Below are positions 4,599 to 47,045 of a stretch of 64,000 nucleotides of DNA, in pieces (the stretch's first letter is position 1; every line of letters begins with the position of its first letter). The position numbers were made by a program, and so were the translations under genes. The notes beneath the pieces were generated by a model. The model made no database searches. It had not been told where the DNA came from and saw only the letters and a program-made list of their open reading frames with translations. Source of the stretch: Terriglobia bacterium (GTDB lineage: Bacteria > Acidobacteriota > Terriglobia > 20CM-2-55-15). The stretch spans positions 928,001-992,000 of the forward strand of contig CBDAOY010000007.1 in assembly GCA_965198225.1 (NCBI GenBank), read 5' to 3'.

Positions 4599-7217
4599 GT
4601 GATTCAGCCCGGTTCCAAGCTTGCACACTACGAAATCGTTTCTGCCCTAGGAAAGGGCGGTATGGGCGAGGTGTGGCGTGCGCAGGACTCCAAGCTCGGG
4701 CGCGAAGTGGCCATCAAGACCCTGCCCGAAAGGTTCGCACAAGACGGGGAACGCCTGGCCCGATTTGAGCGTGAGGCCAAACTGCTCGCCTCGTTGAACC
4801 ATCCCAACATCGCTGCGATCTACGGTCTGGAAGAAGACAACGGCACGCGGTTCCTCGTCCTCGAACTCGTCGAGGGCGACACGCTTGCCGACCGGCTCAA
4901 GCAGGGGGCCACCCCGGTCGAGGAATCCCTCAAGCTCGCACTCCAGATTGCCGAAGCACTCGAAGCCGCGCACGAGAAGGGCGTCATCCACCGCGACTTG
5001 AAGCCCTTAAATATAAAGGTCACGCCCGAGGGCAAGATCAAGGTCCTGGACTTCGGACTAGCGAAGGCGTTTGCCGGGGACGGTTCAGACCCGAACCTGT
5101 CGCAGTCACCGACGTTGAGCATGGCGGCGACGCAGCAAGGGGTCATCCTCGGCACCGCCGCCTACATGTCGCCCGAACAGGCACGGGGCCAGGAAGCCGA
5201 CAAGCGGGCCGATGTGTGGGCGTTCGGATGCGTCCTGTTCGAGATGCTGGCCGGTCGACGCGCGTTCCCAGGCGAATTGGCCTCCGACATTCTGGCCGCC
5301 GTGATCCGGGCCGAACCGGAGTGGAGCGGATTGCCCGCGAACCTCCATCCCCACGTCGTCGAGTTGCTCGAACGCTGTCTGGAGAAAGACCCGAAGAACC
5401 GCTGGCACCATGTCGCCGACGTTCGTGTGGGCATCGAAAGAGTTCAGGCGGACCCCGCAGGGCTTCTGGATCGGACCGGTTCGGCCTCACCTGAGGTGGG
5501 GCGTCGCCTCTTGCCCTGGGCAACCGGTGTTGCTGGCGCAGTTCTTGCCTTGATGTTCACAACCGTATTTGTGGAGTCGCCTACCACCCCCGGTGACGTG
5601 ACCCGCCTGACACTGACGCTCCCGTCCGACCAGCGGCTCGCCGGTAGAAAATCGATGACGCTCTCACCCGACGGCAGTCGGGTCGTGTACACGGCCAGCA
5701 CCGGCGGTCGGCCCATGCTGTACGTGCGGCCGCTCGACCAGTACGAGGCCACTGCAATTACTGGAACCGAGGGGGCGGCGGATCCGTTCTTCTCTCCGGA
5801 CAGCCAGTCGGTGGGCTTCTTCGCGGAAGGGCGACTGAAGACCGTTCGGTTGTCAGGTGGGCTGCCGAATCCTCTCGCCCCCGCCCCGTTTGCTTTCGGC
5901 GCGGATTGGGGTGAAGACGAGCACATTATTTACAGCCCCACGCTGAACAGTGGGCTGTGGCGGGTCCCGGAAGGGGGCGGGCAGCCCGGGCAGCTGACTG
6001 CGCCGGATCCTGACGGCGGAGAGTACGGCCATGTCCATCCTCAATACCTTCCTGATGGCCACAGTGTCCTGTTCAGTGTGTGGGGGCCGCGCACCCCAGC
6101 GATCCTTTCGCTGGACACGGGGCAGTGGGAAGCAATAAATCTCTCAGCAAGATCCGGTCAGGCATTCTATCTTTCGACGGGCCATCTCCTCTTCGCCTCG
6201 GGGCCACAAGTAGAGGCGATCCCATTCGATCCGGCGAGTCTTTCGGCGGCGGGTAGCAGCGCCGGCGTCCTGACTGACGCTGCCAGGAGCGTGGGTTTCG
6301 TCTTTTCGACGGCGAACAACGGGACACTCGCCTACCTTCCGAAGCAGCCGTCCCAATTGGTGTGGGTCGACAGACGAGGGAATAAAGAGCCACTGGAGGT
6401 ACCCACGGGCGAGTACGGCAGGCCCCGGCTATCCCCAGGTGGCAACCGCGTTGCCGCATTGCAGTCGGGAGGCGTGGCCGCGTTGCTGGTGATCGATATC
6501 GCAAGCGGCACTCCGACGACGATACCGACACCGGGAAGGGGTACTTTAGGCCTTGTGTGGATGGACGACGGGACCCTGATCTTTGGATCGAACAGAGCCG
6601 ACAATTTCGACATCTATTACGTCGATGTGGACAGCGGTGGAGCGATGGAAGCGATCCTGGTCAAGGCGTTCGATCAGATGCCCTCATCCTGGCTTCCGGA
6701 AGAACGCCTGCTCGCTTACAGAGAGATCAATCCGGTCACCGGCGCCGACATCTGGTTGCTGGACCTGGACGACGGTGAGCCGAGACCGCTCGTTGTCACC
6801 TCGGGCTACGACCGTTTCGCCCAATTTTCACCCGACGGCAACTGGGTGGCCTACGCGTCCGATGAGTCGGGTCGCGACCAGGTCTTCATCTGCTCGTTAA
6901 CCGATTGCACCGGAGTTCGGAGGACCGTGGGGTTCGGGAGCGAACCGCACTGGTCACCCGATAGCCGGGACTTGTTCTTTCGCCACGGGAACCAGGTGAT
7001 GGCGAGAGAGATCACGGACGCGTCAACAATGACCCTTGGTAATGAGACGCGGATGCTCTTCGAGGATCAATTTCGGTATCCGACGTTCGACCTTGCTTCA
7101 TACGACCTCCATCCAGACGGCGACCGCTTCCTCATGATTAGCGACCCGACGAACGACGAGATCCGGGTAATCTTGAACTGGGTTGAAGAGTTGAAGGAAT
7201 TGGTGCCGGTCCCATAA
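4599..7217 (+). CDS. Ser/Thr protein kinase with hydrophobic segment and C-terminal PD40 repeats
   Basis: GKGGMGEV, VAIK, HRDLKP, DFGLAK, GTAAYMSPEQ; SPDG repeats. Confidence 0.92.
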   Translation: MIQPGSKLAHYEIVSALGKGGMGEVWRAQDSKLGREVAIKTLPERFAQDGERLARFEREAKLLASLNHPNIAAIYGLEEDNGTRFLVLELVEGDTLADRLKQGATPVEESLKLALQIAEALEAAHEKGVIHRDLKPLNIKVTPEGKIKVLDFGLAKAFAGDGSDPNLSQSPTLSMAATQQGVILGTAAYMSPEQARGQEADKRADVWAFGCVLFEMLAGRRAFPGELASDILAAVIRAEPEWSGLPANLHPHVVELLERCLEKDPKNRWHHVADVRVGIERVQADPAGLLDRTGSASPEVGRRLLPWATGVAGAVLALMFTTVFVESPTTPGDVTRLTLTLPSDQRLAGRKSMTLSPDGSRVVYTASTGGRPMLYVRPLDQYEATAITGTEGAADPFFSPDSQSVGFFAEGRLKTVRLSGGLPNPLAPAPFAFGADWGEDEHIIYSPTLNSGLWRVPEGGGQPGQLTAPDPDGGEYGHVHPQYLPDGHSVLFSVWGPRTPAILSLDTGQWEAINLSARSGQAFYLSTGHLLFASGPQVEAIPFDPASLSAAGSSAGVLTDAARSVGFVFSTANNGTLAYLPKQPSQLVWVDRRGNKEPLEVPTGEYGRPRLSPGGNRVAALQSGGVAALLVIDIASGTPTTIPTPGRGTLGLVWMDDGTLIFGSNRADNFDIYYVDVDSGGAMEAILVKAFDQMPSSWLPEERLLAYREINPVTGADIWLLDLDDGEPRPLVVTSGYDRFAQFSPDGNWVAYASDESGRDQVFICSLTDCTGVRRTVGFGSEPHWSPDSRDLFFRHGNQVMAREITDASTMTLGNETRMLFEDQFRYPTFDLASYDLHPDGDRFLMISDPTNDEIRVILNWVEELKELVPVP

Positions 7218-32500: not shown

Positions 32501-34695
32501 CGTTGTCTCCTTTCGGCGGTTCCCACACCTGGCAACACCGCCGGGATCGTTTCCTGCACATGGCTCAAGGCGGGTATCGGCCGGGCGAACTCTTCGTCCG
32601 GTCTGTCTTCATGGATTCTCTCCATGAAATCGATCCAGATCGGCAGAGCCGTACGGCCGCCGGTTTCGGCGTAGCCCAGGGAGACCTTCTCGTCAAAGCC
32701 GACCCAGGCGCCGGCGGTGATCGACGGCGTGAAGCCGACGAACCACGCGTCGGTGAAATCGTTGGTCGTGCCGGTCTTTCCGGCCACCGCCCGGTCGAGA
32801 GATTGCGCCCCTCTGGCCGTTCCGCTGCGCACCACTTCCCGGAGCAAACCCACCATCGCGTCTGCCGTTTCAGCCGACATGACCTCGTTCGCCTCGGGCA
32901 GGTTTTCCTCCAGAATGTCGCCGTCGTAGTCGGTCACGCGATTGATGAGCCGCGGTATTACGCGGACCCCGGTGTTGGGGAAGGCTGAATAGGCCGAGGT
33001 CAACTCGAGGAGAGTGATGTCGGTCGCCCCCAGGGCGATCGGCAGGTACGGTTCGATCACCGAGGAGATGCCGAAACGCGCCACCACCGGAACGAGCACG
33101 TCAAACCCGATCTGATTCAGAAGCTTCACCGCAGGAACATTCCTGGATTGCGCGAGAGCCTGGCGCAGTGTGATGGTTCCGCGGTATTCCCCGTCATAGT
33201 TCGTCGGAGAGTAACCGTCGAAATCGACCGGTGCGTCCTCCACCGTCTGATCCGGCGTCAATCCGTAGTCGAGAGCCGCCGTGAACAGCAGGGGCTTGAA
33301 GGCCGAACCGGTCTGTCGTAACGCCTGCGTCGCGCGGTTGAACTTGCTCGTGCCGAAATCGTACCCCCCCACCATTGCTTTCACTTCGCCGGTCCGATGG
33401 TCGATTGCGACCAACCCACCCTGAACCTCGGGCGTCTGTTCGAGCTCGAGCTCGATCGTCTTCTCGGCCGGGTTGATCGATTGGACGCGGAACACGCCGA
33501 CGTCACCCGGGGTGATCAACTGTTGAGGTGCGCTTCGGCCTGTCCATGCGACCTCCCGCGAGCCGATCTCGTCCCGGTAGTCTCCGACCCGGATCAGGGC
33601 GCTCCGCGCGCCCGACTCCACGACGACACCGCGGACGATGTCGCCGGCCCGAATCGGCTGCGTCCATTCGGGCAGAGAGTAGTTTTCCAGATCGTCTATC
33701 CCATTCTCCGTCAGGTTGAACTCCGCTCCGCGCCAGCCATGTCGTTTGTCGTAAGCGCGAAGTCCCGCCCTGAGGCTGGCCTTCGCGGCGCGCTGCATCT
33801 CCGCGTTCAGAGTTGAATAAACACGTAATCCGCCTTCGTGGACCGCGAATGTTCCGTATGTGCTTTCCAGGTACTGGCGCAGCTCCTCCACGAAGTAGGG
33901 AGCGAGTTGGTCGGGGGCCCGTTCGTCATTGAGTCGGATTGGTCTCTGCTTGGCCTGCTCGCCCTCATCGACCGCAATCTTGCCTTCCGCGACCATTCGG
34001 TCGATCACGTAGTTGCGGCGCATCATCGCACGCTCGGGATTGGCTATCGGAGAATAGCTCGACGGGGCTCGCGGCAGAGCGGCTAGCAGAGCCGCCTCTT
34101 CGATCGTCAGGTCCTGGATATTCTTACCGAAGTAGAACTCGGCGGCGGCCGCGAATCCATACATTCCGTGTCCGAGGTAGATTTGATTGCAGTACAGCGT
34201 GAGGATTTCATCCTTGGTATAGCGTCGCTCGATCTGTATGGAGAGCATCGCTTCCTTGACTTTCAAGGACCAGAGGCGCTCGTGGGAGAGAAAAAGGTTT
34301 TCGCTCAAGACCTGAGTGATCGTACTTCCGCCTTCCACGACGCGTCCCGCAAATATGTTCTTCACGGCTGCTCGCGAGATGCCGTAGAAGTCGAGGCCCC
34401 AGTGGTCGTAGAAATTCTGGTCCTCCACCGACACGATCGCGTCCTTAAGCACGCTGGGCAGCTGGTCGGATTCGACAATGATTCGACGCTCCAGGGCGAA
34501 CGAACCGATGACCTGGCCGCCATCACCGTAAACTTCGGTAATCACGTTGGGCCGGTAGTCTTCCAGGGATTCGACCTGCGGGAGCTCGCTGTTGTAGACA
34601 AAGAGAATACCACCTGTAGCGCCCAGCGTGATGGAAAACACAAGCAGTGCGGCAAACAGGAACGAACCGAAGTAGCGTCGGATCTGGAGTCTCAC
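32497..34695 (-). CDS. mrcA: Penicillin-binding protein 1A
   Basis: EDQNFYDH, GGSTITQ, GSAFKP, SRN, GKTGT. Confidence 0.92.
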   Translation of the reverse strand: MRLQIRRYFGSFLFAALLVFSITLGATGGILFVYNSELPQVESLEDYRPNVITEVYGDGGQVIGSFALERRIIVESDQLPSVLKDAIVSVEDQNFYDHWGLDFYGISRAAVKNIFAGRVVEGGSTITQVLSENLFLSHERLWSLKVKEAMLSIQIERRYTKDEILTLYCNQIYLGHGMYGFAAAAEFYFGKNIQDLTIEEAALLAALPRAPSSYSPIANPERAMMRRNYVIDRMVAEGKIAVDEGEQAKQRPIRLNDERAPDQLAPYFVEELRQYLESTYGTFAVHEGGLRVYSTLNAEMQRAAKASLRAGLRAYDKRHGWRGAEFNLTENGIDDLENYSLPEWTQPIRAGDIVRGVVVESGARSALIRVGDYRDEIGSREVAWTGRSAPQQLITPGDVGVFRVQSINPAEKTIELELEQTPEVQGGLVAIDHRTGEVKAMVGGYDFGTSKFNRATQALRQTGSAFKPLLFTAALDYGLTPDQTVEDAPVDFDGYSPTNYDGEYRGTITLRQALAQSRNVPAVKLLNQIGFDVLVPVVARFGISSVIEPYLPIALGATDITLLELTSAYSAFPNTGVRVIPRLINRVTDYDGDILEENLPEANEVMSAETADAMVGLLREVVRSGTARGAQSLDRAVAGKTGTTNDFTDAWFVGFTPSITAGAWVGFDEKVSLGYAETGGRTALPIWIDFMERIHEDRPDEEFARPIPALSHVQETIPAVLPGVGTAERRQR

Positions 34696-34708
34696 GGCGA
34701 TGATTATA

Positions 34709-36508
34709 TCAGGAGCCCACCCTCAATACGGCCAGGAACGCCTCCTGAGGGATGTCGACCTTGCCGACGCGCTTCATGCGTTTCTTGCCTTCCTTCTGTC
34801 GTTCCAACAGCTTGCGTTTCCTGGTGATGTCGCCGCCGTAGCATTTGGCGACCACGTTCTTCCGGATCGCCGGTATCGATTCGCGCGCGATCACGCGGCT
34901 GCCGATGGAAGCCTGGATTGCGACTTCGAACATCTGGCGGGGAATGAGCTCCTTCATCTTCTCGACCAGGGCGCGTCCGCGGGCATATGCAAAGTCGCGA
35001 TGGACGATCCAGGAAAGTGCGTCGACGGTTTCACCGCCGACGAGGATGTCGAGTTTGACCAGATCCGAGGTCCGGTAGCCGGACAGGTGATAGTCGAAAG
35101 ACGCGTACCCCCGCGAGACGGACTTGAGGCGGTCGTAGAAATCAAGAACGATCTCGTTGAGCGGCATTTCGTAGGTGAGCAACACGCGCGTCGCCGAAAG
35201 GTACTCGAATCCTTTCTGGATGCCCCTTTTGTTCTCGAGAAGTTTGAGGATGGGCCCGAGGAAATCGTCCCGCGTCATCACCAGAGCGGTGATGATGGGC
35301 TCCTCGATCGTGTCGATGAACTGGGGGTCCGGAAACTTTGTCGGGTTCTCGACGTCCTCCAGGCTGCCGTCCGTTTCGAGGATTCTGTACCTCACGCCGG
35401 GCGCAGTAGAGATCAGCGAGAGCTCGAACTCCCGCTCGAGGCGTTCCTGGATGATTTCCATGTGCAGCAGGCCGAGAAACCCGCATCGGAACCCGAAGCC
35501 GAGCGCGGTCGAAGTCTCGGGTTCGTAGAAGAAGGAGGAGTCGTTCAGGCGAAGCTTGTCGAGCGCGTCTCGGAGCGATTCGTACTGGTTTGGTTCGACG
35601 GGATACAGCCCGGCAAAGACCAGCGGCTTGATCTCCTGGAATCCGGGAAGCGGCTCTGTCGTCGGGCGTTCGTCCTCGGTGATCGTGTCTCCAATCTGGG
35701 TGTCGGAAACGGTCTTGATGTTGGCAATTATGTAGCCGACCTCGCCCGCCCTCAGGCTCCCAGTCGGGTTCATTTTCGGTCTGAGTGTGCCGATCTCATC
35801 GGCCTGGTAGACCTGTCCGTTGGACATCAGTCGAATCTTCGTGCCGCGCTCGATCAGACCGTCGATCATCCGAACCACAACGATGACGCCACGGTAGGTA
35901 TCGAACCAGGAATCGAAGACCAGGGCCTTCAACGGGGCGTCGACGGAGCCCGCAGGCGGTGGAACTCGCGTCACGATAGCTTCCAACACGTCGGTGACTC
36001 CCTCGCCATGCTTGGCGCTGATGTGGAGCGCCTCGTCAGGGTCGAGACCGATCACGGATTGGAGTTGCTCCTCGACCCGTTCCACTTCGGCGCCCGGCAG
36101 GTCGATCTTGTTGATGATCGGGACGATCTCGAGATGGTTCTCGATGGCCAGGTATGTGTTGGCCAGCGTCTGCGCCTCCACCCCCTGAGAAGCGTCGACG
36201 ATGAGCAAAGCACCCTCACAGGCTGCGAGGCTCCGGGATACCTCGTAGCTGAAGTCCACGTGACCGGGTGTGTCGATCAGGTTCAGGATGTAGTCCTTAC
36301 CGTCACGGGCTTTGTGATCGAGACGCACGGCTGCCGCCTTGATCGTGATTCCGCGCTCCCGCTCCAGATCCATGGCGTCCAAGACCTGCGAGGACATCTC
36401 CCGCTCCGACAGCGCGCCGGTCAGTTCCAGCAGCCGGTCCGCCAGTGTCGACTTGCCGTGATCGATGTGCGCGATGATCGAGAAATTGCGTATATGGCTC
36501 AATGGCAT
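34709..36508 (-). CDS. lepA: Translation elongation factor 4
   Basis: [42 protein letters not shown]. Confidence 0.97.
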
Positions 36509-37059
36509 GAGCTCTAAGTATAAGTGAACATCGTAGTCCGTAGGCCGTTGTGCTTCGCCGAAGGCGAACCCTGCGTTGGTGCGCCTGCCGCTCCTTTCCG
36601 GGAAGGTTCGCGGCATAGCAATCGCGAGCGGAACGTGGCCTGGATGCCTCTAACCGGTACTGTGAAGGTAACGGACGCAAGTCAGGGGAAGGCTGGTCGG
36701 ACGCAGACTAGGCCGCTGTGACCGCCCAGGTGGTCAAAGATCGCGCCCGAAATGTTCGATGATGAACGGACCTGAGCCGATGCCTTCCCACGCGGAACAG
36801 ATTCTGAATCACACCGTGAACATGCAGGAATCGCTGAGCCTGATCGGTTGATTTGAAGCGTCTCATCTGACGCTCCCTCAGTCGGCTCGATTGGTGGGAT
36901 ACTTCGCGGGCCCTGATTAGCTGCCAATTTCGTAGCTATTCTGATCTTACTCAGGGAGACCAGCCACAGACCTCTATTCGATAATACAAGTCGTCGTTGC
37001 TGTGTCGAGCAGTCAGGGAGAGGTCGACATAAGAGGCGTAGTCAATCACCGCGCCGGTG

Positions 37060-37314
37060 CTAGTGCTTTCCAATCCCGAAGGCATGAATCAATACCACGA
37101 GCCAAACCACCCCCATCCAAACTACCACGATGCCCGGGTGACGTTCGCCTAGGAGCAGCGACAGCGCCAGGAGAGCGTAGACCGCAATCACCCCGAGCCA
37201 CTTCGCCCTAATCTGGTAGCGACCCAACCAATCGCGGCCGCTTGACCTGTGTTGAGGTATCACCTGCATCCCGAATACACTCTTTGCCAGAAACCATCCG
37301 GTGCCGTCAGCCAT
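37060..37314 (-). CDS. Small membrane protein (84 aa, two TM helices)
   Basis: ATG overlaps the presumed original stop of the upstream gene (TGATG); two hydrophobic segments; currently fused in frame to the upstream ORF. Confidence 0.55.
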   Translation of the reverse strand: MADGTGWFLAKSVFGMQVIPQHRSSGRDWLGRYQIRAKWLGVIAVYALLALSLLLGERHPGIVVVWMGVVWLVVLIHAFGIGKH

Positions 37315-38475
37315 CAAGGTGCAACAAGCACATGAGCCGGCGCGATGCCAACGTCGTCTATCGATCTGAGCTGTTGTCCGGACTCGACATCGATGAGACC
37401 GAATATCACCACCTTGACTCTTTGCCAGAAACCAGATGCCAACGTCGTCTATCGATCTGAGCTGTTGTCCGGACTCGACATCGATGAGAAGAATATCACC
37501 ACCTTGAAGAGTTGGTAGGTACAGCAAGCCGTCTTCAGATGTCATGCTCGAAAACTGTTGACTCGGGTGAATCGATTGAATGTGTTGAAGCGTCTCCGCA
37601 TCAAAAACGAGAATCCGGTCTGCCAACCGCATGTGGCTTGGTCCGTCACTCTCGCTGGCCGCTACCAGTATCATAGCGTCAGCCGCTATCGTCAAGAACG
37701 GGTGAACGTCGACGTTCGGAATCATCCGAGAAACCGTCTTCAACACCTCTCGCTGCGATAAATCAAGCGACAAAAGAGACGTATCCTCTTTGACAATGAC
37801 CATCCGTGTCGCACCATCAAGAAGCATGGCACCCGAATTTCGTCCTTGGGGCAAGGGCTGCCCTGACGGGGAACTAGGAAGTATCCACATGCTCGTTTGC
37901 GGCAGGCCATTCACCCATTCGGTAAACCGAACAGCGTTCCGGAATGGCGGAACGAATATCAGGCGACTCTCCAATTCAGCCGACATCATTAGCCACGGTA
38001 GACAGTCCGGTAGGCCGGTTCGCATTCCGTTGAGCCGTCCTGTAATCGGGTCGAAGGCAGACACTACCGTGAGACAGGAGCCTTCTGGTGGTCTGAGCTG
38101 AGTCTGAACATAGACCAAGCTGGGGCTTGAAAACAGATAAGGAAACCCTGGCTCAAGGGATCCCCTCACCCGATCAGCTACGTCAACTTCGTGAGTCACG
38201 ATTCCCTGTTGGACATCAAATACCACGAGCCGGTCGTCTTGAAGAATGGCGAGGGCGCTCCCTTCATTCACCACGGTGACGGCAGCGTCATCGGCGACCA
38301 GGATTCGGCCGTGAGCCACTCCCCATGCATCGATGAGTAGGATCTCATCATTGTCCTCTCCGCTTCGATCAAGCACATAAAGCCACCCTGATGACGGGGC
38401 TTCCCATGACTGTGGCTGTTGACCAGACAGGCTGGTGACCGACAAGGCTAGAATGACGATGATTCTACTAAACAC
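37314..38475 (-). CDS. Secreted beta-propeller protein, amine dehydrogenase heavy chain (MauB)-like; 3' end disturbed by a duplication
   Basis: Signal peptide; LYVLD, VFD repeats, LPDC, C-terminal IDVESGQQLRSIDDVG(IAPAHVLVAP*). Confidence 0.6.
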
Positions 38476-39082
38476 AGGGATCGACCTTCCGATAGCGATC
38501 TTGGCGATTCGGTTCCGATAGCCGGCGGTCGAGCGGCCGATCCGTGTGGAACAGACCGGTCCGCCTCAAGTGAGAGCCAACTAGATGGCCTTGCCGTCGA
38601 TCTCGTTGTCGTTCGCCGTCATGATGAAACCGCATCAATTCCTCCTCTCTCCTCGACCTCGACTGGCAAGACCCATCGGCGATGGTGCCGATCTCTCCGT
38701 TACAGGCCACTAGTAAGCCTTCGCTCTCGAGCCAAGTTGATTCATCCTTCTAACTCTCGTCACAGTAACACGTTGGGATTATTACTCCCGGAACTGCGCC
38801 AGAAGAAACAAAGAAGCACTGCACATCGCCGCCCGTTCTGGCGCGAAGAATGATGTTCAGGTTGTGATTCCACGGTATGTATTCCCCGCCAGGGATTGTT
38901 CGGCAAAACGGATTCGAAGAGGAAGTGCACTGGAACTCCCCTGTACTTTCATAGTAGATTTCCCAGCCTACTGGTTCAATAAGGCCGATGTGGCAATCTA
39001 GGACCTCAGTGGTCACTTCAAAACCGGCCAACGATGGTCACTTCAAAACCGGCCAACGGGGATGGCCCGGGACGGTGTTGTT

Positions 39083-39838
39083 CTACCTCTTTGGGACTGG
39101 ACTCGGCAAGCCCGTTTTAGTCCTCCAACTCCGAGGGCCGCATTTGAGGATGTGGCCGTGATGGAGCAGCCGGTCCAGCATGGCTGTGACGGCGGCGCTA
39201 TCACCCAGTAGTTTTCCCCAGTCTTGGACGGGTCGATTCGATGTCAGTAACGTACTGGTCCGTTCATAGCGTCGCATCACGATCTCGAGGAGTTCCTCTG
39301 CTGCAGTGGGAGGAAGCTTCCGCATCCCCAGATCGTCGATGATCAGCAGCGGGACCGTCGCCAAAGCTTCCATGCACTCCTTTCGGGTACCGTCAATGGT
39401 GGCTTCGGCGATGTCGTCGAGAAGCGCATGAGTTTCACGGTAGACGACCCGATAGCCCTGCTCAATGGCAGCCAAGCCGATGGCCTGAGCCAGATGACTC
39501 TTGCCGGTGCCAGGAGGACCGAGAAACAAGGCATCGTCGTGCCTGGAGATGAAGGCGCCCGTCGCCAGGTCGAAGACCAGACTACGATTCATCTTCTTGT
39601 TGAAAGTAAAGTCGAAGGAGTCGAGCGTCTTCTGGGGATCGCGGAACCGGGCCTGTTTCCGACGCCGTTCCAACAACCGGATGCTGCGACGGTCCAGTTC
39701 ATCCGAGACCAGACGAGAGACCAAGTCGATCGGCGCCATGGCTTCGGTCTGGGCCTGGTGGAGGCGTGTTTCCAACACCTCGGCAATGCCGCCGAGCCGG
39801 AGTTGTCGGAGAGCCCGCTGGAGTTCGATCAGATTCAT
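39083..39838 (-). CDS. istB: IS21 helper ATPase IstB
   Basis: GPPGTGKSHLA, LLIIDDLG, TSN, LDRLLHH. Confidence 0.95.
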   Translation of the reverse strand: MNLIELQRALRQLRLGGIAEVLETRLHQAQTEAMAPIDLVSRLVSDELDRRSIRLLERRRKQARFRDPQKTLDSFDFTFNKKMNRSLVFDLATGAFISRHDDALFLGPPGTGKSHLAQAIGLAAIEQGYRVVYRETHALLDDIAEATIDGTRKECMEALATVPLLIIDDLGMRKLPPTAAEELLEIVMRRYERTSTLLTSNRPVQDWGKLLGDSAAVTAMLDRLLHHGHILKCGPRSWRTKTGLPSPVPKR

Positions 39839-41445
39839 GAGTGTTCCTGCTCCTGGATTTTGAGGTTGATGAGATCGCGATACTGAGTCAGTTCGCGAAT
39901 GAGAGGATCGACCTGACGCAGGGCGAGTGGAGGTCGCCGCTCCAGATAGCGGCGGACGAAACGATACTCGTAGACGTGGAGTTCCAGTGCCGCAGCCGAA
40001 GCATCCTCCACGGCGGAGACACCGTACTTCTTGGCCAGGGAGAGCACACCCAGGATGCGGCGGACCGCAGCTTCCCCTTGTCGGCGGTGAATGGCGTCAC
40101 AGAGTGTGCCGATGTGGGTGCCAGCGCGGCGGGCTCGGGCCAGCAGTTGCACCGTCGTTAACGGGGTTTTCTTCGGGTTGTCTTCAGCACGGACACGGTA
40201 TCCACCCCGCTTCTGGCGGACATGCTCGCGGAGGAGTGGATAGGTGTTTGGGTCCAGGATCCGGACGTGAAGCGTGTCCCACTGGACCTTGACACCCCGT
40301 CCGATCCAGCCCGGCGGTACACTGTAATAGGCGGCTTCGACTTCGACGCAACCGTCGAGATGGACGACACGTTCACCGAATTGGTAATAGCGAAACGGTT
40401 CGATCGGCAGCGGCTTAAGAGATGGTTTCTCTTCGGCGAACATGGCCGCCACCTGCCGCTTGGTCGTGCCGTGGATGCGGGTGTCGGCCCATCGGACTTC
40501 CCAGCGATCCAGATACCCCTGGGCCTGGTCGAGGCTCTCGAAGCGCTGTCCCTTCAATGGGGTCTTCTGGGCGTGCCCGACACCGGATTCGACTTTGCCT
40601 TTGCGGTCTGGATCGCGCACCCGGCATGGCATGGCCACCACGCCGTAATGGGTCAGGACATCTCGAAACAACGGATTCAGGGTGGGGTCGTAATGGTCCG
40701 GGACGATCACGCCTTCGCGCAGGTTATCCAGCACGATGAGGCGGGGAGTGCCGCCGAGTCGGCGGAACGCGGTCTCGTGCAACTGGGCCCAGATGCGGGA
40801 ACTGGACTTGAACGTCAGCAGCCGGACCGATTTGCGGCTGTAGCCCAACGTCATCACGAACAGCCGCGTCCGTCGGTACTTGCCCGTCTTCGGATCCCGG
40901 ACCATCGGTCCGGTCCCGTAGTCGACCTGCGCTTCCTCTCCAGCTCCGGTCTGGATGATTCCGACCGCTTCCGGGGATCGCACTCCCCGGAGTTTGCGAA
41001 CGAAACGCTTGACCGATTCGTAGCTGCCGACAAAACCGTGATCCGTGACCAGGTCCTGCCAGATCGCCATCGCGTTGCGGCCACGCTCCAGCGCCTGTTG
41101 GATGGTCTCCCGGTACGGCTCGCAGGAACTGCCCGACGGTGGGCTTGGAGGGGGAGCCGACGACTCTGCCGAGACCGGATTCTCGGCCTCCGGGTCGGTG
41201 GTCACCGTTTTGAAGTATCTCGACACCATTTACGCCTCCGGGTCGGTGGTCACCTCGTTGGCCGGTTTTGCCGGTCGCCGGCCCCAACTCCCGGGCGGCC
41301 GAATGGGGATTCCGGCCGCTCTCAGATACGCACTGGCCGTCTCACGACGCACGCCGGTGGTCTGTTCGATCCGACGCAGCGGCCATCCAAGCCGCCCCAA
41401 TGCAACAACTTGCTCTCTCTTTTCTGTGCTCAAGACATTGCTCAT
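39835..41445 (-). pseudogene. istA: IS21 transposase IstA with in-frame TAA after residue 71
   Basis: HTH ORF 41230-41445 in frame with 39835-41229 (EAQVD, DNL, KGKVE). Confidence 0.85.
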
Positions 41446-42271
41446 GCCGACGGAGCCTGTTTCGGCTTCCCGTCGGTGTCAATGTCCCGGGCTTATCTAT
41501 GTTCGTTGGCCGGTTTTCAGGTGACCACCATTGGCCGGTTTTGGGTGACCGCCGAGGCTAGGACATCAAACGTAGAGCCGTCGCAATCCGGGATCCAACT
41601 TTGGGTTATACACACTTGTCCGGGAGGACAACCAGGCAACTGATCCTTAAACTTCATCTGAGTGATATTCCTAGAAAGCCACAATCCAACGGGGTCATAG
41701 ACGCGCATATCGCCTTTGGCATGGTATTCAGTCTGCTGCTGCGCTGATACTGTTTTGAATACCGGAGACTCGGTCGACACGGCAGGTATCAACTCCCACT
41801 CTCGGTCCGAGTCCATCGCTACAGCCTGAGCTTGGCGTTTGTCGTTCAGCGACGCTTGGTCCCCAAAGAAGTTACGCGGGCCAAATGACTTACTGATGAC
41901 AATCAAGTTGCATTCGGCGTCCGGCATGATCGCCATTCTCCGACCGAAACCGGGCGGCGTGCGCATCGAGATTGTAAAGGCATCATATGTGCAGACTCCA
42001 CTAGGTGCTCGGGTGCCTTGGAGCACCGTCTGCCCAACCGCTAGCTCTCGATCGACAAAGACACGTTCAGCGGGGACCGGCTCCCTCTCTCTTCTCTGCG
42101 CTGAGACTGGGGACGGAGTTAGCAACAACGTACCAAGTGCTGCAACTAAAAGCGCCACGATGTAGCGGGTTCGGTTTGAAGAACGGTTTCTGAGTGTTTT
42201 CACGGCGGCCTCCTTCTTTTGGCGGGTTGAAAGCGACGTTTCCTTGAACCGCGCAGAACTGTACGAGACCG

Positions 42272-42721
42272 TTACGAGTGGCGGTAGGGGGCCGAGTTGC
42301 GGTTTATGTGCCCTTGAGCTGTGCCGTTATCGTTGCGGTATTCACTGGGCGTAATCCCGTGTTCCCGTTTGAACATCCTCGAGAAGTATCGGAGGTCTCG
42401 ATATCCGAGTTTGTATGCGATTTCAGAGACTCTCAGGTTGGTCGACCGAAGCAGTATCTCCGCGATGCTTAACTTGACTCGCAGTCGGGCTTCCCGGAAA
42501 GAACTCCCGTGCAGACGTTTGAACTCGTGAGAGAAATGATTCGGACTGACGCTGAGAAGTTCTGAAGCGTCCTCCTGGCTCAGGTTCCCGTGAGTTGATA
42601 TCAGGGCCGTGAACACTTCTTCGAGACGTTCATCGCAGTCTACAAGTTGCAGAGTGAGTTCCATGCCGGGCACCCTTGAAGGGCTATTCCTTGCACGGAG
42701 ATCCCCAGCCTGTAAGGTCAA
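42272..42721 (-). CDS. AraC-family HTH regulator (DNA-binding domain only)
   Basis: S..HFS..FK, SEIAYKLGY....FSRMFK...G.TPSEYR; start may be ATG 42664. Confidence 0.85.
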   Translation of the reverse strand: MTLQAGDLRARNSPSRVPGMELTLQLVDCDERLEEVFTALISTHGNLSQEDASELLSVSPNHFSHEFKRLHGSSFREARLRVKLSIAEILLRSTNLRVSEIAYKLGYRDLRYFSRMFKREHGITPSEYRNDNGTAQGHINRNSAPYRHS

Positions 42722-43016
42722 CAGATGGCTTAGTTAGCTTCTTGGCGGTGTCGGTGTGTCCTTGAGAAGCGCGACTAAGAATCGCGTTTGCTGAGACCTT
42801 CTGATTCCGTGGAGATTAGATATCTTGCGACACAGCCGATTGGCCGGGGTACGACCTGCCCGCTGTGGAGAAGACCCGTATTGCTGACTTTTGACCAGCC
42901 AACTTGTGGCTCCTGAAAGATCGGTTTGGCGAGAGTGGAGTTCTTCGGTGGCGGTGCGGGCACTTCAAATCTGAGAGTGTTGGGTCCACCTGCGACCTGA
43001 TAAGTGGAACAACGGC

Positions 43017-43943
43017 CTACGGACTACGGCCTACGTCTTGCCGCCTACGCACAACGTCCCGGGCATACAGCGCGGCACCGATAACGCCGGCGTCCGATCC
43101 AAGTTTTGCGGGGACGATCCGGCAGGCGTTGAAAGTCTCGGCGTAGGAGCGTCGACGGGTCTCTTCGATGGCGGGGTCGAACAACCATCGACCGGCGTTG
43201 GCTACGCCCCCGCCGATGACGATCATCTCCAGGTTCAGCGTGTTGATCAGGTTGGCGCACGCGAATCCCAGGAATTGGCCGGCCTCCTCGAGGACCCTCC
43301 TCGCCTCCGCGTTGCCCCGAGCCGCGGCCCTCACCAGGTCCTCGGCGCTCAGTTCACCGTCGGTTTTCACGCGATCGCGTGCTCGGGCGACGATCCCGGT
43401 CGCCGATGCACGGGTCTCCAGGCAGCCGCTACCGCCACAGGGGCAGGCGTAGCCGTCGGGTTCGACGACCATGTGGCCGACTTCGGCAGCATGTCCCCGG
43501 CTGCCTCCGTAGAGCTGACCGTCAAGGATCAAGCCCGAGCCGACGCCGGTACCCAGTGTCAGGCATGCCATGTACCGGACATCCGTAGCCGCGCCAACCT
43601 TGAATTCTCCCCAGGCGTTCATGTCCGCATCGTTCCGGCCGACGATCGGCAGCTGAATCCTTTCTCGGAGGAGAGCTTCCAGATTCTGTTTCACGAGGCA
43701 CGGAACGTTCGGCGAGGCTTCGATCAGCCCGGTCCTGGATCGCAACCCCGGAATGCCGATGCCGACTCCGTCGACCACGCTTTCAGCCGACAGCGTCGCC
43801 ACGAGCGACGACAGGTTCCCCAGCAGCGCGGCGATGTCGATCGCCTCGGTCGGACGACGAAGCGATTCGAGAACAACACCATCGCTGCCGACCCGTCCGG
43901 CCTTAATCGTGGTTCCCCCGATGTCGATCCCGATGTAGGACAT
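43017..43943 (-). CDS. ROK family sugar kinase (glucokinase-like)
   Basis: GIDIGGT, NDA, LGTGVGSG, EVGH, CPCGGSGCLE. Confidence 0.9.
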   Translation of the reverse strand: MSYIGIDIGGTTIKAGRVGSDGVVLESLRRPTEAIDIAALLGNLSSLVATLSAESVVDGVGIGIPGLRSRTGLIEASPNVPCLVKQNLEALLRERIQLPIVGRNDADMNAWGEFKVGAATDVRYMACLTLGTGVGSGLILDGQLYGGSRGHAAEVGHMVVEPDGYACPCGGSGCLETRASATGIVARARDRVKTDGELSAEDLVRAAARGNAEARRVLEEAGQFLGFACANLINTLNLEMIVIGGGVANAGRWLFDPAIEETRRRSYAETFNACRIVPAKLGSDAGVIGAALYARDVVRRRQDVGRSP

Positions 43944-44248
43944 AGGCGGTTCAATATACTACGTGTTACGAGTGCGACAGCCCTCGTCTTACCCGCGTTG
44001 ACTTCCCGCCGGGCCGGTCGTAACATGGCCGGCGAGGAGAGGCGTTCAGGTCGGCAATCAGCCATCAGTGTTTAGCTATCAGCTCAATCGGATGCGACTA
44101 TCATCGCGTTCCCGAAGTAGCTCTCCGCGCAACGTGTCGTCAGCTGTTCGTAAGCTGACGGGCGCAGTCAGGCTGCAGCGACCCGGCATCGGAGCTCAAC
44201 CCTCAAACGCAAGGATCAAGCGTCCGAACACCAACCCGGAGGAGAAGA

Positions 44249-44692
44249 ATGAGCGTCAAACAGATCAATCCTGAGGAGGCCAGTGGATTCATGCAGGGCG
44301 ACAAGGGGGTCCTCTACATCGACGTTCGCACGGAACCCGAGTTTGAAAACGGCCATCCGCCAAACGCGATAAACATACCGGTGGTCTTTCCCGATCCGGC
44401 GACTCGTCAGATGACCCCGAATCCGGAGTTCATGAAAGTCGTGGAAGCGCACGTCGCGAAGGACAAGCCGGTCATCGTCGGATGCCAGATGGGCGGCCGG
44501 TCACAATACGCCGGAGAATTGATGGTGGGCGCAGGCTACACCGATGTCTCCAACATGCATGGGGGATTCGGGGGCGCTCGGGACCCGATGGGACAGATCG
44601 CCGCACCCGGTTGGCTTCAGATGGAGTACCCGGTGGAGAATCGGGTGGATGAGTCGAATAGCTACGCGGGGCTGAAGAAAAGTAGCCAGTAG
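44249..44692 (+). CDS. Rhodanese-like domain protein
   Basis: IDVRTEPEF..GH, GCQMGGRS. Confidence 0.88.
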   Translation: MSVKQINPEEASGFMQGDKGVLYIDVRTEPEFENGHPPNAINIPVVFPDPATRQMTPNPEFMKVVEAHVAKDKPVIVGCQMGGRSQYAGELMVGAGYTDVSNMHGGFGGARDPMGQIAAPGWLQMEYPVENRVDESNSYAGLKKSSQ

Positions 44693-45550
44693 TCAGTAGT
44701 CAGTTGGGGTTGGCGAACCCGGCGCATCGTTTCTTTCCCGGAAGAATCTGGTCAAGAGTTTGAGTAACTGGGTCTCTGCTTTCTTTCCGGCTGCGAGGAC
44801 CTCGTCGTGGGTGATGGGGGACGCGTTTCGGTGGGCGGCGACATTGGACAGGACGGAGATAGCTGCCAGACGGATGCCCATGTGGTGGGCGACGATTGCT
44901 TCAGGGACGGTGGACATGCCGACGGCGGCGGCTCCGATCTTGCAAAGGAACTCGACTTCAGCCGGCGTTTCATACGTCGGCCCTGAAACCGCGGCGTACA
45001 CGCCTTCTCTCAGATGCACTCCCTCCAGCTCGGCTGCCCTCAGCATGCGATTCCGCAACGCTCGATCGTAGACTTCCCGTTGATCGAGGAACCGCGGTCC
45101 CCATCGTTCCTCGTTGACTCCGCGAAGAGGATTGGCGCCCAGCAGGTTGATGTGATCCGAGATCAGCATCAGGTTCCCGGGGGCGAAGTCTCGGGGTTTG
45201 AGGGAGCCGGCCGCGTTGGTCAGGACCAGTTCTTTTGTGCCGACCTTCCCGATCACGCGGATCAGGAAGGTCACCTCATCCATTCCGTACCCCTCGTAAT
45301 AGTGAATCCGCCCCGAAAAGATCCACAGATGGATTCCGCCGAGGCTGCCGAACACCAGACGGGCTGCGTGTCCCTCGACGCTGGAGGCAGGGAAGTGCGG
45401 TATGTCTCCATACGAAATCGACAACGGGCCTGGCACCAGTGTTTCCAGACCCGCGAGGCCGCTGCCGAGAACGAGCGCCGCGTCAGGTGCCTGACCCGAG
45501 CGCTCGAGTATGTATTCGGAAGCAGCTTCGACTCGTTCGTAGTTCGTCAT
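44693..45550 (-). CDS. punA: Purine-nucleoside phosphorylase (trimeric type)
   Basis: LGSGL, GRIHYYEG, TNAAG, GPTYETPAE, VGMSTVPE. Confidence 0.92.
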   Translation of the reverse strand: MTNYERVEAASEYILERSGQAPDAALVLGSGLAGLETLVPGPLSISYGDIPHFPASSVEGHAARLVFGSLGGIHLWIFSGRIHYYEGYGMDEVTFLIRVIGKVGTKELVLTNAAGSLKPRDFAPGNLMLISDHINLLGANPLRGVNEERWGPRFLDQREVYDRALRNRMLRAAELEGVHLREGVYAAVSGPTYETPAEVEFLCKIGAAAVGMSTVPEAIVAHHMGIRLAAISVLSNVAAHRNASPITHDEVLAAGKKAETQLLKLLTRFFRERNDAPGSPTPTDY

Positions 45551-45565
45551 TAGTCGTGGACCTGC

Positions 45566-45843
45566 CTAGCAGCCCGTGGCAGAACTCTGCAGGGTCGCGC
45601 GCAGGGGTCTTCGGGTTGCAGGCGCGAAGAGAGGAGCGGAGCGATGATCATTCATCGTGACCGACGAGCGACAAAGCCTGCGGGCCGACCCCCCCCTGCG
45701 CCCTTCGGGTTACGGCGAAACGGGGCCGTCTTCGTTGTCGCCGACTCCTCCCAATGAATGAGCATTGTTTCGTCCTCGCCTCCTAGAATCCGGCCCCGTT
45801 TGGCCGCAACGCGCCCCTGCAGAGTTCTGCCACGGGCTGCTAG
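45566..45843. mobile_element. MITE-like element with 29-bp perfect terminal inverted repeats including CTAG
   Basis: CTAGCAGCCCGTGGCAGAACTCTGCAGGG and its exact reverse complement; no transposase inside. Confidence 0.8.
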
Positions 45844-47045
45844 AGGAGGATGCCTGCGATCGAAGCGGTCATCAGCGTAGCCATGGTTCCCGCCAGAAGA
45901 GAACGGAGGCCGAGCCGCGCCAGGTCGTGTCTCCGGTCCGGCGCGATGCCTCCAATACCGCCGATCATGATGCCGATCGAGCCGAGGTTCGCAAAGCCCG
46001 CCAGTGCGTAAGTCGCGATCGTGACAGAACGAGGATCCAGAGCGTCCGGGTTTCTCAGCATCTCTGTCAGGCTTGAATACGCGATGAACTCGTTCAGCAC
46101 GATCTTCTGTCCCAACAGGCTTCCTACCGAAACGATGTCGGGCGCCGGTACGCCTATGATAAAAGCAACGGGGGCGAAGAGGAATCCGAGTATCTGCTGC
46201 AATGAGATCCCCGCCAGGCCCAGGACCCCGTTAGCCATCGCGATCAGAGCGACGAACGCTATCAGCATTGCCGCGACGTTCAGTGCAAGACGCAGCCCGT
46301 CGGAGGCTCCCCGCGCGACGGCATCGATCACGTTCACGTCTCCCTGATCGAGGTCGAGTTGGACATTGCCCCGCGTCTGGGGTTCTTCGGTTTCCGGATT
46401 GAGGATTTTCGCGATCACCAGCCCGGCAGGAGCGGCCATCACGCTCGCTGTCAACAGATGACCCGCGCTCACACCCATCCGGATGTATCCGGCCATCACG
46501 CCCCCGGCGATCGTGGCCATCCCCCCTGTCATCAGGGCCATCATCTCCGACTGCGTCATCCTGCCGACGAACGGCTTGACGACGAGCGGAGACTCGGTCA
46601 TTCCCATGAATACGTTGGCTGCCGCGGCCAGAGACTCCGCACCGCTTGTTCGCATGGTCTTCGACATCAGCTTCGCGAAGACGAGCACGACCTTCTGCAT
46701 GATGCCCAGATGGTAGAGCACCGTGAACAAGGCGGAAGTGAATATGATGGTCGGCAGCACCTGGAACGCGAAAACAAGGCCGAAAGTGTCGACATCGGAA
46801 GCCAGGCGCCCGAAAACAAAGATCGCTCCTGCGTCGGCGAACGACAACATTCGCGTCACCGCTCGGCTGATGTTGTCGAACACGATCACCCCGGGGGATG
46901 TCTTGAGTATGAAAACGGCGAACCCGAACTGGAGCGCCAGGCCCCAGCCTACGATTCGAAAGTCGATGGCTCTCCGATTGTTGGACAATCCGTATGCTGC
47001 CAGGAGCATCAGGAAGAGACCGCCCACGCTGATGATGTTCGTCAT
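45840..47045 (-). CDS. nupC: CNT/NupC family nucleoside transporter
   Basis: FAFQVLPTIIF, GMTESP, GGMATIAG, NEFIAY, GFANLGSIGI. Confidence 0.92.
   Translation of the reverse strand: MTNIISVGGLFLMLLAAYGLSNNRRAIDFRIVGWGLALQFGFAVFILKTSPGVIVFDNISRAVTRMLSFADAGAIFVFGRLASDVDTFGLVFAFQVLPTIIFTSALFTVLYHLGIMQKVVLVFAKLMSKTMRTSGAESLAAAANVFMGMTESPLVVKPFVGRMTQSEMMALMTGGMATIAGGVMAGYIRMGVSAGHLLTASVMAAPAGLVIAKILNPETEEPQTRGNVQLDLDQGDVNVIDAVARGASDGLRLALNVAAMLIAFVALIAMANGVLGLAGISLQQILGFLFAPVAFIIGVPAPDIVSVGSLLGQKIVLNEFIAYSSLTEMLRNPDALDPRSVTIATYALAGFANLGSIGIMIGGIGGIAPDRRHDLARLGLRSLLAGTMATLMTASIAGILL

Follow-up and report, generated by a model that had tools for sequence, protein, structure and literature searches.

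The closest described systems are the amine dehydrogenases MADH and AADH, for which our references were the Paracoccus denitrificans mau cluster (NC_008688; PDB 2bbk, 2j55 and 3l4m) and the AauB/AauA pair (PDB 2agy family), together with the quinohemoprotein amine dehydrogenase (QHNDH; PDB 1jju and 1jmx), in which the propeller subunit holds a small cross-linked Cys-rich subunit. To our knowledge, every characterised propeller of this fold (in MADH, AADH and QHNDH) pairs with a small Cys-rich subunit. The light-chain signature given in the original prediction, CPPG-x6-SW-x3-C, is genuine: it was present in 107 of 121 MauA-family proteins, and in P. denitrificans MauA the motif is followed by YRDCC and by a W-C that lies 51 residues past the motif Trp. 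The same string occurs in a Cys-rich protein encoded beside a propeller gene in the window, the whole 64,000-nucleotide stretch of DNA analysed here (Table 1). The host is a soil acidobacterium.

The Cys-rich gene in the window genome is cut by a copy of an IS21-family element. Its reading frame opens with a GTG (42203, minus strand) preceded by AAGGAGG and then enters the element, which is 2,553 bp long with 40-nt imperfect terminal inverted repeats and carries istB (39083-39838, minus strand; IstB_IS21 E 9.9e-62) and an istA split into two minus-strand ORFs (41230-41445 and 39835-41229) with rve and Mu-transpos_C_2 domains. The genome holds at least 13 near-full copies of the element (97.7-99.9% identity), and the istA frame is unbroken, at 557 codons, in the five other copies checked. 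Deletion of the element plus one copy of the target duplication regained the Cys-rich frame. A scripted join of 42203..41558 to 38997..38750 gave 894 nt encoding 297 residues, with no internal stops, 11 Cys, and Trp at positions 203, 227 (+24) and 258 (+55). An uninterrupted allele from another assembly, P0001, had the same residue as the restored tail at 218 of 218 positions, and short-read contigs from four runs passed from the 5' part of the gene into the end of the element. The scripted join and the intact allele, a homologue of the kind that had been sought, thus agree with the original prediction that excision yields a secreted 297-residue protein with this Cys content and Trp spacing.

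Table 1 Features of the locus (window coordinates)
Feature	Position	Strand	Remarks
Small two-helix membrane ORF, ~50 aa	37060..37212	-	P0024 match; outside the pair
MauB-like seven-bladed propeller gene	37314..38475	-	356 aa with 37344-37434 skipped; as assembled, runs to 37060
91-nt near-duplicate in the last codons of the propeller gene	37344..37434		Repeat families D1, D9, D11
~123-nt interspersed repeat between the Cys-rich and propeller genes	38591..38713		Found by blastn
Cys-rich gene, 3' part including stop codon	38750..38997	-	P0001 covers the junction without interruption
Target-site duplication	38998..39004 (copy 1); 41558-41564 (copy 2)		7-bp direct
IS21-family insertion sequence	39005..41557		istB and split istA, terminal inverted repeats
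Cys-rich gene, 5' part	41558..42203	-	Codons 1-215 and one base of 216; Sec-type signal peptide
Motif codons for CPPGQVCITQSWIPDC	41583..41630	-	Restored residues 192-207; MauA-like
AraC-type HTH-only regulator gene, 149 aa	42272..42721	-	HTH_18 E 8.2e-22, HTH_AraC 2.3e-17

As assembled, the propeller gene continues after ...IDVESGQQLRSIDDVGI into the near-duplicate, where a 1-nt indel shifts the frame and carries the ORF to its end at 37060. Short-read contigs from three runs of three different studies (X1, X2 and X5) lack exactly those 91 nt, with no mismatches, and without them the protein ends ...DDVGIAPAHVLVAP, its stop codon lying at 37314. The C-terminus quoted in the original prediction is therefore absent from the assembled window and present in the contigs of those three runs. 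The gene's apparently broken 3' end is probably an artefact of the assembly. The small membrane ORF beyond it is a separate gene; P0024 (50 aa) aligned to query residues 423-470, and no such ORF was found beside the pair in G002, a second genome of the same genus. When the spacer between the Cys-rich and propeller genes was compared with the genome by blastn, 138 matches were obtained (~78-98% identity), mainly to the interspersed repeat, where word depth was 180-1290 versus 2-17 in the flanks and where contigs end.

As had been proposed, the propeller is MauB-like: it is a genuine, though distant, homologue of TTQ amine dehydrogenase heavy chains (MauB and AauB). Its family profile matched the MADH heavy chain over 354 positions, the full length, with E 1.4e-23, and hhalign with P. 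denitrificans MauB gave 95.6%. Foldseek with an AlphaFold2 model (pLDDT 89.6) returned MADH or AADH heavy chains as all of its top 26 matches (TM 0.70-0.73), with lower TM values for NirF (0.56), the QHNDH beta subunit (0.57) and YncE (0.61); chains of MADH, AADH and QHNDH were among both the profile and the Foldseek matches. The LPDC named in the original prediction was seen, and the N-terminus is signal-peptide-like, in keeping with the secretion put forward there. A library of 1.84 billion proteins contained 47 relatives, and PF06433 was detected in 25 of the 46 scanned. In tblastn searches of the genome with the G002 and window propellers this locus was the sole match.

The Cys-rich protein gave a different result. 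It had no matches in Pfam, NCBIfam or PDB, and PF02975 found nothing at the locus. With filters off, the MauA HMM gave P0001 5.7 bits over 19 residues (43rd among 58,235 genomic ORFs) and its ortholog -3.9 bits, and hhalign of the Cys-rich family against 26 MauA sequences gave a probability of 0.7%, or 0.4% when two divergent MauA-like proteins were added, both at the low power of a family of two sequence types. The only ortholog, that of G002, is ~50-53% identical and reads CPTHGTVCITQSFLPDC; CPTHG replaces CPPG and SF replaces SW, so that Phe stands where the TTQ Trp would be. The second Pro, this Trp and an Asp, the residues that give the match its force, all differ there, whereas the motif Trp was invariant across the 26 aligned MauA sequences; hence the SW pair is not conserved among homologues, and a Trp-derived quinone at that position is not a conserved property of the family. 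The ortholog showed no similarity to MauA, its best local score being equalled by 917 of 3000 shuffles. The family lacks the Tat leader, PLLP, N-terminal Cys, DCC and WC that are invariant in ten canonical plus divergent MauA sequences and, beyond C-P...C...DC, none of the family-wide MauA invariants was found. The Cys spacing past the motif is likewise unlike that of MauA, and the AlphaFold2 model had a pLDDT of 29. Given these profile scores and the Phe in the ortholog, we rejected the protein as a MauA-family light chain; judged by its sequence it lies outside that family, and the MauA-like, TTQ-like subunit of the original prediction is not upheld.

The motif itself might nevertheless be a remnant, if an ancient light chain had diverged past profile detection, gained a long N-terminal addition and lost TTQ while keeping the loop of the TTQ Trp. 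The likeness to MauA is limited to ~30 residues (BLASTP E 8e-4, single comparison), and 4 global and 7 windowed shuffles, out of 3000 of each kind, attained the local score. The nominal chance of the motif match is p about 1e-3 to 2e-3, which overstates the evidence because the case was picked for the match itself. The motif expression matched once in the 12.8 million six-frame residues of the 6.4-Mb genome, in a gene adjoining the only propeller of its family in that genome, and a Smith-Waterman alignment with MauA reached DG-x-[ST]-[FY] plus a DC ~30 residues further on. Relatives of the propeller are located in mauE-mauD-MauA-like clusters of soil metagenomes, the light chains of which have altered forms of the motif (CPTG..TW, CPNC..FW) and go undetected by Pfam (no family matched PF02975 at E 0.001), so that negative Pfam results are weak evidence. 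Although all of this speaks for descent from a light chain, we consider such a remnant rather unlikely in view of the ortholog's lack of resemblance to MauA, the hhalign probabilities, the missing invariants, the differing Cys spacing and the overgenerous p value.

Both genes lie in an islet of GC 0.50-0.54 and GC3 0.55-0.61, flanked by housekeeping genes of 0.60-0.65 and 0.75-0.79. The AraC regulator that had been reported near the pair belongs to the same low-GC islet (GC 0.536 versus 0.604 for the genome); it does not adjoin the pair in G002. Two of the four genomes of the genus (G000, the window genome, and G002) have both the Cys-rich and the propeller genes and neither gene was found in the others (G001 and G003), so that the one further genome with either gene has both. 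Strand and order are alike in the two genomes despite differing flanks, IS elements flanking the G002 pair. This arrangement, the two genus members that lack both genes, and the pairing of characterised propellers of the fold with a small Cys-rich subunit argue against two unrelated neighbours that co-travel on a mobile islet, with products that do not interact and a propeller that acts alone as most of its relatives do. However, among 36 loci carrying relatives of the propeller, the Cys-rich protein was encoded at one alone, that of G002, many relatives have no Cys-rich neighbour of any kind, and the co-occurrence is based on two genomes of one genus; on balance we judge such unrelated neighbours distinctly unlikely.

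The absence of mauG, mauD and mauE from the window, stated in the original prediction, was borne out among the ORFs listed for 34000-46000 and by tblastn along the window's contig stretch. These genes were linked to the pair in neither genome, and no electron-acceptor gene such as amicyanin was found near it. The search for a MauG-like gene did yield two CCP_MauG-family genes, both on contigs other than that of the pair; the family is common, occurring in 4 of 14 control genomes. All 11 mature Cys and the two further Trp (+24 and +55) are kept in both orthologs. A working undescribed quinoprotein, in which the Cys-rich protein, bearing a TTQ- or CTQ-like cofactor derived from Trp, would oxidise an amine or similar substrate together with the propeller, could draw on these retained Trp, the odd number of Cys, the two CCP_MauG genes and everything that speaks for a remnant, but it is highly improbable given a Cys-rich protein that is no recognisable small subunit, the Phe in place of the motif Trp, the unlinked maturation genes, the missing electron acceptor, the commonness of CCP_MauG genes and a leader of Sec-type appearance where MauA has an invariant twin-arginine leader.

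The reading we favor, and hold to be probable, is that of a genus-restricted, horizontally acquired islet composed of an AraC regulator, an orphan 11-Cys secreted protein and a MauB-type propeller, the last two forming an accessory pair that is IS-inactivated here. In such an islet the two proteins would act together outside the cytoplasm, where the propeller may bind the disulfide-rich protein or act as its scaffold, by analogy with MauB and MauA, and the pair would work without amine-dehydrogenase chemistry. A point against this reading is that the soil-metagenome relatives of the propeller sit in real mau clusters, so that its lineage was once paired with light chains.

The locus resembles MauB/MauA and AauB/AauA in having a secreted seven-bladed propeller of one superfamily with a Cys-rich secreted protein alongside, and it shares the CPPG-x6-SW-x3-C string with MauA. 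In contrast to MauA, the Cys-rich protein has no MauA domain, a motif Trp that varies in the ortholog, a Sec-like rather than a Tat leader, and 297 rather than 188 residues, with a 190-residue N-terminal part. Its gene precedes that of the propeller, unlike the mauB-E-D-A order of P. denitrificans, the islet lacks mauE, D, G and amicyanin, and the propeller, unlike MauB, scores below the PF06433 Pfam cut-off. The propeller of quinohemoprotein amine dehydrogenase is of the same fold class (E 1.7e-10; TM 0.57), but the similarity is weaker than that to MADH and AADH, and the pair has no haem subunit and no linked radical-SAM or protease maturation genes; a radical-SAM gene lies 4.4 kb from the pair in G002 and elsewhere in the window genome (C7:601 kb). 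The soil-metagenome clusters (L044-L046 and L047-L049) have the order mauE-mauD-MauA-like-DsbD_2-type membrane protein-propeller. They retain MauE (E 2.4e-23) and a thioredoxin-like MauD, both missing from the islet, and their light chains, of 160-173 residues, have the Tat leader, Y-x-DCC and W-C, none of which the islet has. Their propellers share the family of the window propeller, in a different subgroup from its clade in a quick tree, and a short AraC-type regulator heads the L046 cluster as well.

The insertion element in this locus belongs to the IS21 family. It ends in 40-nt terminal inverted repeats, contains 24-nt subterminal direct repeats, is flanked by a 7-bp target duplication, and encodes istB (IstB_IS21, E 9.9e-62) and an istA having integrase-core and Mu-transposase C domains (Pfam rve and Mu-transpos_C_2). 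The genome carries at least 13 further near-full copies, which are 97.7-99.9% identical. The istA gene of the window copy is split into ORFs of 71 aa and 464 aa; all five of the other copies checked have a single 557-codon frame. Contigs from four runs pass out of both parts of the Cys-rich gene into the IS ends and none has the empty site; thus, the insertion is real in those samples, with the caveat that short-read contigs can conceal rare variants. The Cys-rich/propeller system is dead in this genome (G000). The AraC regulator gene of the original prediction is present, and a paralog 76% identical to it directly abuts another copy of the IS on contig C8. The spacer contains an interspersed repeat of its own: blastn of the spacer against the genome gave 138 matches (~78-98% identity), word depth over the repeat was very high in the public runs, and the repeat forms a modest hairpin (z -2.2) with no Rfam match. 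Rfam had no match within 36800-43000, a promoter and terminator scan of the locus gave chance-level results, and PADLOC returned no defence family. Only small fractions of the sequence words of this stretch were present in RNA runs.

Features of the locus and of the related loci discussed in the text
Feature	Position	Strand	Length	Remarks
AraC-type HTH-only regulator gene	42272-42721	-		HTH_18, E 8.2e-22
Cys-rich ORF, 5' part	start 42203	-		good Shine-Dalgarno upstream; foreign sequence entered after ...CPPGQVCITQSWIPDCDGSTFDVL
IS21-family element	39005-41557		2,553 bp	interrupts the Cys-rich gene
Cys-rich ORF, 3' part	stop at 38750	-		continues beyond the IS
Spacer, Cys-rich to propeller			274 nt
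Interspersed repeat	38591-38713		~123 nt	within the spacer
Propeller gene	start 38475	-		last in the gene order AraC, Cys-rich 5' part, IS, Cys-rich 3' part, spacer, propeller
Near-copy at the propeller 3' end	37344-37434		91 nt	1-nt indel
Two-helix membrane ORF	37060-37212	-	~50 aa	relative, P0024
AraC paralog and abutting IS copy	G000 C8:1109155-1112163
mau-like cluster	L046:800-5110			soil metagenome; near-copies L044, L045, L048, L049
mau-like cluster	L047:891-4974			soil metagenome; same near-copies
DsbD_2-type membrane protein	L016/L034, ~5405-5728, 3405-3728			directly upstream of propeller; light-chain gene absent
DsbD_2-type membrane protein	L040:194-790			directly upstream of propeller; light-chain gene absent; contig ends there

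Removal of the IS21 element had been said to restore a 297-residue protein having 11 Cys residues, with further Trp residues 24 and 55 positions after that of the SW motif. Joining the gene parts by script gave just these figures (297 aa, no internal stops, 11 Cys and Trp at 203, 227, and 258). The same protein is encoded uninterrupted in another assembly (P0001, 218 of 218 residues identical), and a truncated form, P0002, bears an IS-derived tail. These two proteins were the only matches when 5.8 billion clusters were searched with the 5' gene part, and searching the same clusters with a two-row profile gave P0001, P0002, and P0171, which is of the type found in G002, the only other genome that carries the pair. 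When 400 genomes of the class were searched in six frames, the Cys-rich protein came up in two, G000 and G002; among 40 relatives G002 gave the sole real match (E 1.7e-63), the remaining matches having E values of 0.04 or worse. None of 206 pattern matches from a metagenome scan was confirmed, and no metagenome contig has the protein. Pfam, NCBIfam, the PDB sequences, and PADLOC yielded no match to it, and in the ESM Atlas it met no more than unnamed clusters below the threshold (scores of 0.77 for the whole protein and 0.83 for the C-terminal part). The sole result of a PDB profile search with the alignment, colicin E2/E3, was a chance match (E 3.5). An AlphaFold2 model from the two-row alignment had a pLDDT of 29. 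Judged by its sequence, the Cys-rich protein is an orphan.

The propeller is another matter, and the proposal that it is MauB-like (MauB being the methylamine dehydrogenase heavy chain) is well supported at the superfamily level. A scan of 1.84 billion representatives gave 47 relatives at E values up to 1e-3; a cut-off of 1e-10 left 8 of them and one of 1e-30 left 2. The profile of 46 relatives matched the methylamine dehydrogenase (MADH) heavy chain 1mg2_A end to end (E 1.4e-23, positions 37-390 on 34-387), and also matched AADH (~1e-12) and the QHNDH propeller (1.7e-10). The top PDB row, an archaeal YVTN S-layer propeller (2.3e-39), owes its score to five repeated short stretches rather than to a full-length match. 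When the five closest propellers were aligned with Paracoccus denitrificans MauB by hhalign, the probability was 95.6% over 306 columns, and the PDC and D-x-ESG-x-x-LRS tail to which the original prediction had pointed both fall inside the alignment. An AlphaFold2 model of P0003, a relative 73% identical to the window propeller, had a pLDDT of 89.6, and Foldseek searches with this model returned MADH and AADH heavy chains at all of ranks 1-26 (TM 0.70-0.73, E ~1e-14) followed by other seven-bladed propellers (TM 0.5-0.66). The Pfam family PF06433 (cut-off 21 bits) matches 25 of the 46 relatives (best 7.3e-16); it matches neither the window ORF nor anything else in the genome and scores 11 bits with P0003 and 12 bits with the G002 protein.

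As assembled, the propeller frame runs past ...IDVESGQQLRSIDDVGI into a 91-nt near-copy of the sequence just before it and continues out of frame to 37060, thereby swallowing a small membrane ORF. Contigs from three public short-read runs belonging to three studies (X1, X2, and X5) join 37343 to 37435 with no mismatches, the shorter flank of the junction covering 238-255 nt. Upon removal of the near-copy the propeller becomes a 356-aa protein ending in ...DDVGIAPAHVLVAP, in agreement with the intact 354-aa P0003 (end ...EPVHVLVAP). Given the contigs of three studies that skip the near-copy and the match to P0003, we take the duplication for a probable artefact of assembly or, failing that, for no more than a minor variant. 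A paralog of the membrane ORF lies on contig C2. The ORF was considered as a member of the pair and rejected, as it is unlinked to the pair in G002.

In MauA, the methylamine dehydrogenase light chain, the Trp of the SW motif is the residue converted to the quinone. The MauA signature given in the original prediction is accurate, CPPG.{6}SW.{3}C being present in 107 of 121 family proteins, and P. denitrificans MauA, taken from the mau cluster of that species, reads ...NCPPGTKLATASWVASC...YRDCC...IIWCFG... In 12.8 million six-frame residues of the genome the pattern occurs once. BLASTP of P0001 against MauA aligned 29 residues, 11 of them identical (24.3 bits, E 8e-4 for the single comparison), and the Smith-Waterman alignment reached a DC 30 residues on with a score of 60, which global shuffling reached 4 times in 3000 and windowed shuffling 7 times in 3000. 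As a likeness between sequences the string match is real and nominally improbable, and homology has no support beyond it. The string (p ~1e-3), the adjacency to a MauB-type propeller, and the history of the propeller family, with its mau-like clusters, leave some room for the Cys-rich protein being an exapted light chain, the descendant of a MauA-type subunit. However, it was the string itself that led to the case, and thus the nominal p is inflated.

The domain-level comparisons weigh against such descent. PF02975 (cut-off 25 bits), which gave 181 bits with the P. denitrificans plasmid as positive control, had no match to P0001 at E values up to 10; in the genome it found nothing at the locus and its sole match, elsewhere, was 16.1 bits. 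Two divergent MauA-like proteins also escape Pfam, and hence the lack of a Pfam hit is by itself weak evidence. Profile comparison by hhalign gave the Cys-rich protein a probability of 3.9% against MauA alone, 0.7% against 26 diverse MauA proteins, and 0.4% when divergent light chains were added. With the filters off (hmmsearch --max), the MauA HMM gave P0001 5.7 bits over 19 residues, ranking it 43rd among 58,235 genomic ORFs. The claim that the Cys-rich protein is a MauA/TTQ-like subunit (TTQ, tryptophan tryptophylquinone) is not supported by any domain-wide profile match. All 26 aligned MauA proteins have the quinone-position Trp (W114, in S-W). A second Trp, in W-C ~51 residues after the first, and a Y-x-D-C-C between the two are invariant in ten canonical plus divergent light chains; R21, P42, L44, P45, C59, C65, and C72 are likewise light-chain invariants (Tat leader, PLLP(V)D motif, and Cys-rich N-terminal half). 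The window protein has neither Y-x-D-C-C nor W-C but a DCH at +13/+14, and its Trp residues at +24 and +55 lie within GWE and PWN. Its leader, MKTLRNRSSNRTRYIVALLVAALGTLLLTPSPVSAQ, is not of the twin-arginine type, PLLP(V)D is absent, and the 93 residues that precede the motif contain no Cys. Missing, then, are the three N-terminal Cys residues, the P, Y-x-DCC, W-C, Y-x-C, and the Tat leader of the light chains, which is to say every domain-level signature of MauA.

The ortholog in G002, a genome of the same genus recorded as a Terriglobia MAG, bears on the same question. G002 encodes an intact 287-aa Cys-rich protein followed by an intact 366-aa propeller. The Cys-rich proteins align with 53% identity and retain all 11 mature Cys residues together with the Trp residues at +24 and +55, but the motif reads CPTHGTVCITQSFLPDCFG, which has another residue for the second Pro, one extra residue, and Phe in place of both the Trp and the following Asp. 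Conservation of the SW Trp among homologs had been set in advance as a test, and the residue that is invariant in the 26 MauA proteins is Phe in the G002 protein; by the original prediction's own measure this exchange refutes the light-chain reading. The best local score of the G002 ortholog against MauA was ordinary (reached by 917 of 3000 shuffles) and its HMM score was -3.9 bits. An ortholog without MauA signal is a further argument against an exapted light chain, an explanation that we consider unlikely.

MauG, MauD, and MauE have roles in TTQ maturation, and QHNDH has a small subunit. The remark in the original prediction that no mauG, mauD, or mauE lies in the window agrees with the locus: none turned up among the ORFs listed for its surroundings or next to the G002 pair. 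The two CCP_MauG-family genes of G000 lie on contigs C9 and C6 only, and 4 of the 14 control genomes also have this family. The P. denitrificans Mau proteins, used as tblastn queries, picked out a weak MauD-like thioredoxin on C7 at a distance of 197 kb, and a MauE-like match on C6 was below the cut-off. None of G000, G001, G002, G003, and G106 yielded a MauA-family gene.

The two genes also occur together in G002, on the same strand and in the same order. G001 (94% complete) and G003 (96% complete), other genomes of the genus, yielded neither gene; only four related genomes enter this comparison. The flanks of the G000 and G002 pairs differ, the orthologs of the G002 flanking genes being on C6 and at 601 kb of C7 in G000. 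The G002 pair is bracketed by IS21-, IS3-, and IS256-like transposase ORFs (from translations only). In the window the AraC, Cys-rich, and propeller genes have GC contents of 0.50-0.54 (GC3 0.55-0.61), and the adjoining LepA, PBP1A, and ROK kinase genes 0.60-0.65 (GC3 0.75-0.79). The AraC, Cys-rich, and propeller genes are an imported islet. The G002 pair does not have this AraC gene beside it. A radical-SAM/SPASM gene near that pair was rejected as a linked gene, its G000 ortholog (83% identity) being 365 kb away. Only one of 36 loci with propeller relatives, that of G002, encodes the Cys-rich protein. Complex prediction for the G002 pair (score 0.00), in which the fold of the partner was uncertain, speaks neither for nor against an interaction.

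Tblastn of 39 loci with the P. denitrificans Mau proteins detected MauD-like genes in seven (L044-L049 and L031) and MauA-like genes in three (L047-L049). The soil-metagenome clusters L046 and L047 encode MauE (E 2.4e-23), a thioredoxin-like MauD, a Tat-exported light chain of 160-173 aa, the propeller, and a membrane protein of DsbD_2 type. In the light chains Y-x-DCC and W-C are retained, whereas the first motif varies (CPTG...TW, CPNC...FW); they match no Pfam family at E 0.001, PF02975 included. By these gene assignments the propeller family includes genuine, undescribed mau-like systems. A short AraC-type regulator heads the L046 cluster; its similarity to the window AraC is that of generic HTH domains (E 0.002) and gives no indication of a common cluster ancestry. 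A quick tree placed the window, P0003, and G002-type propellers as sister to P0005 plus P0006 and then P0008 plus P0011, with the MauA-linked L046 and L047 in another subgroup among the light-chain-less L059 and L031, and with P. denitrificans MauB as a long outside branch. DsbD_2-type membrane proteins directly precede the propeller at L016, L034, and L040 (the last of P0008 type), a hint that the propeller family is accompanied more constantly by this protein than by MauA.

The reading that we think probable, although far from assured, is that of an accessory pair made up of a secreted, disulfide-rich orphan protein and a propeller of MauB type. The two would work jointly in the envelope but carry out no amine-dehydrogenase chemistry, and IS21 has inactivated the pair here. 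Joint action of the two proteins is suggested by analogy and by their co-occurrence. Less likely than an exapted light chain, and in our view doubtful, is a rebuilt one, which would have gained an N-terminal domain of 190 residues and a disulfide core that is wired differently but still holds the old cofactor loop; the window lineage, which kept the Trp, might then have a redox cofactor derived from Trp or Cys whose making needs no linked MauG. If true, the Acidobacteriota would have a new branch of enzymes with protein-derived cofactors. That the pair is a working TTQ-type enzyme we consider highly improbable.

An accessory pair would, if the reading is right, be of modest interest as a MauB-type propeller re-used with a non-homologous disulfide-rich partner. 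A full-text literature search on TTQ, methylamine dehydrogenase, and MauG topics listed no paper on such a Cys-rich/propeller pair; in one preprint, "methylamine dehydrogenase chain H-like" is simply the name of a CATH fold. The case illustrates that a textbook active-site string can recur beside the "right" neighbor without family membership. The propeller family, with its 47 representatives and with light chains that Pfam misses, suggests that TTQ-type dehydrogenases may be under-counted in soil bacteria, and the L044-L049 clusters look like an undescribed branch of the TTQ-type dehydrogenase clusters.
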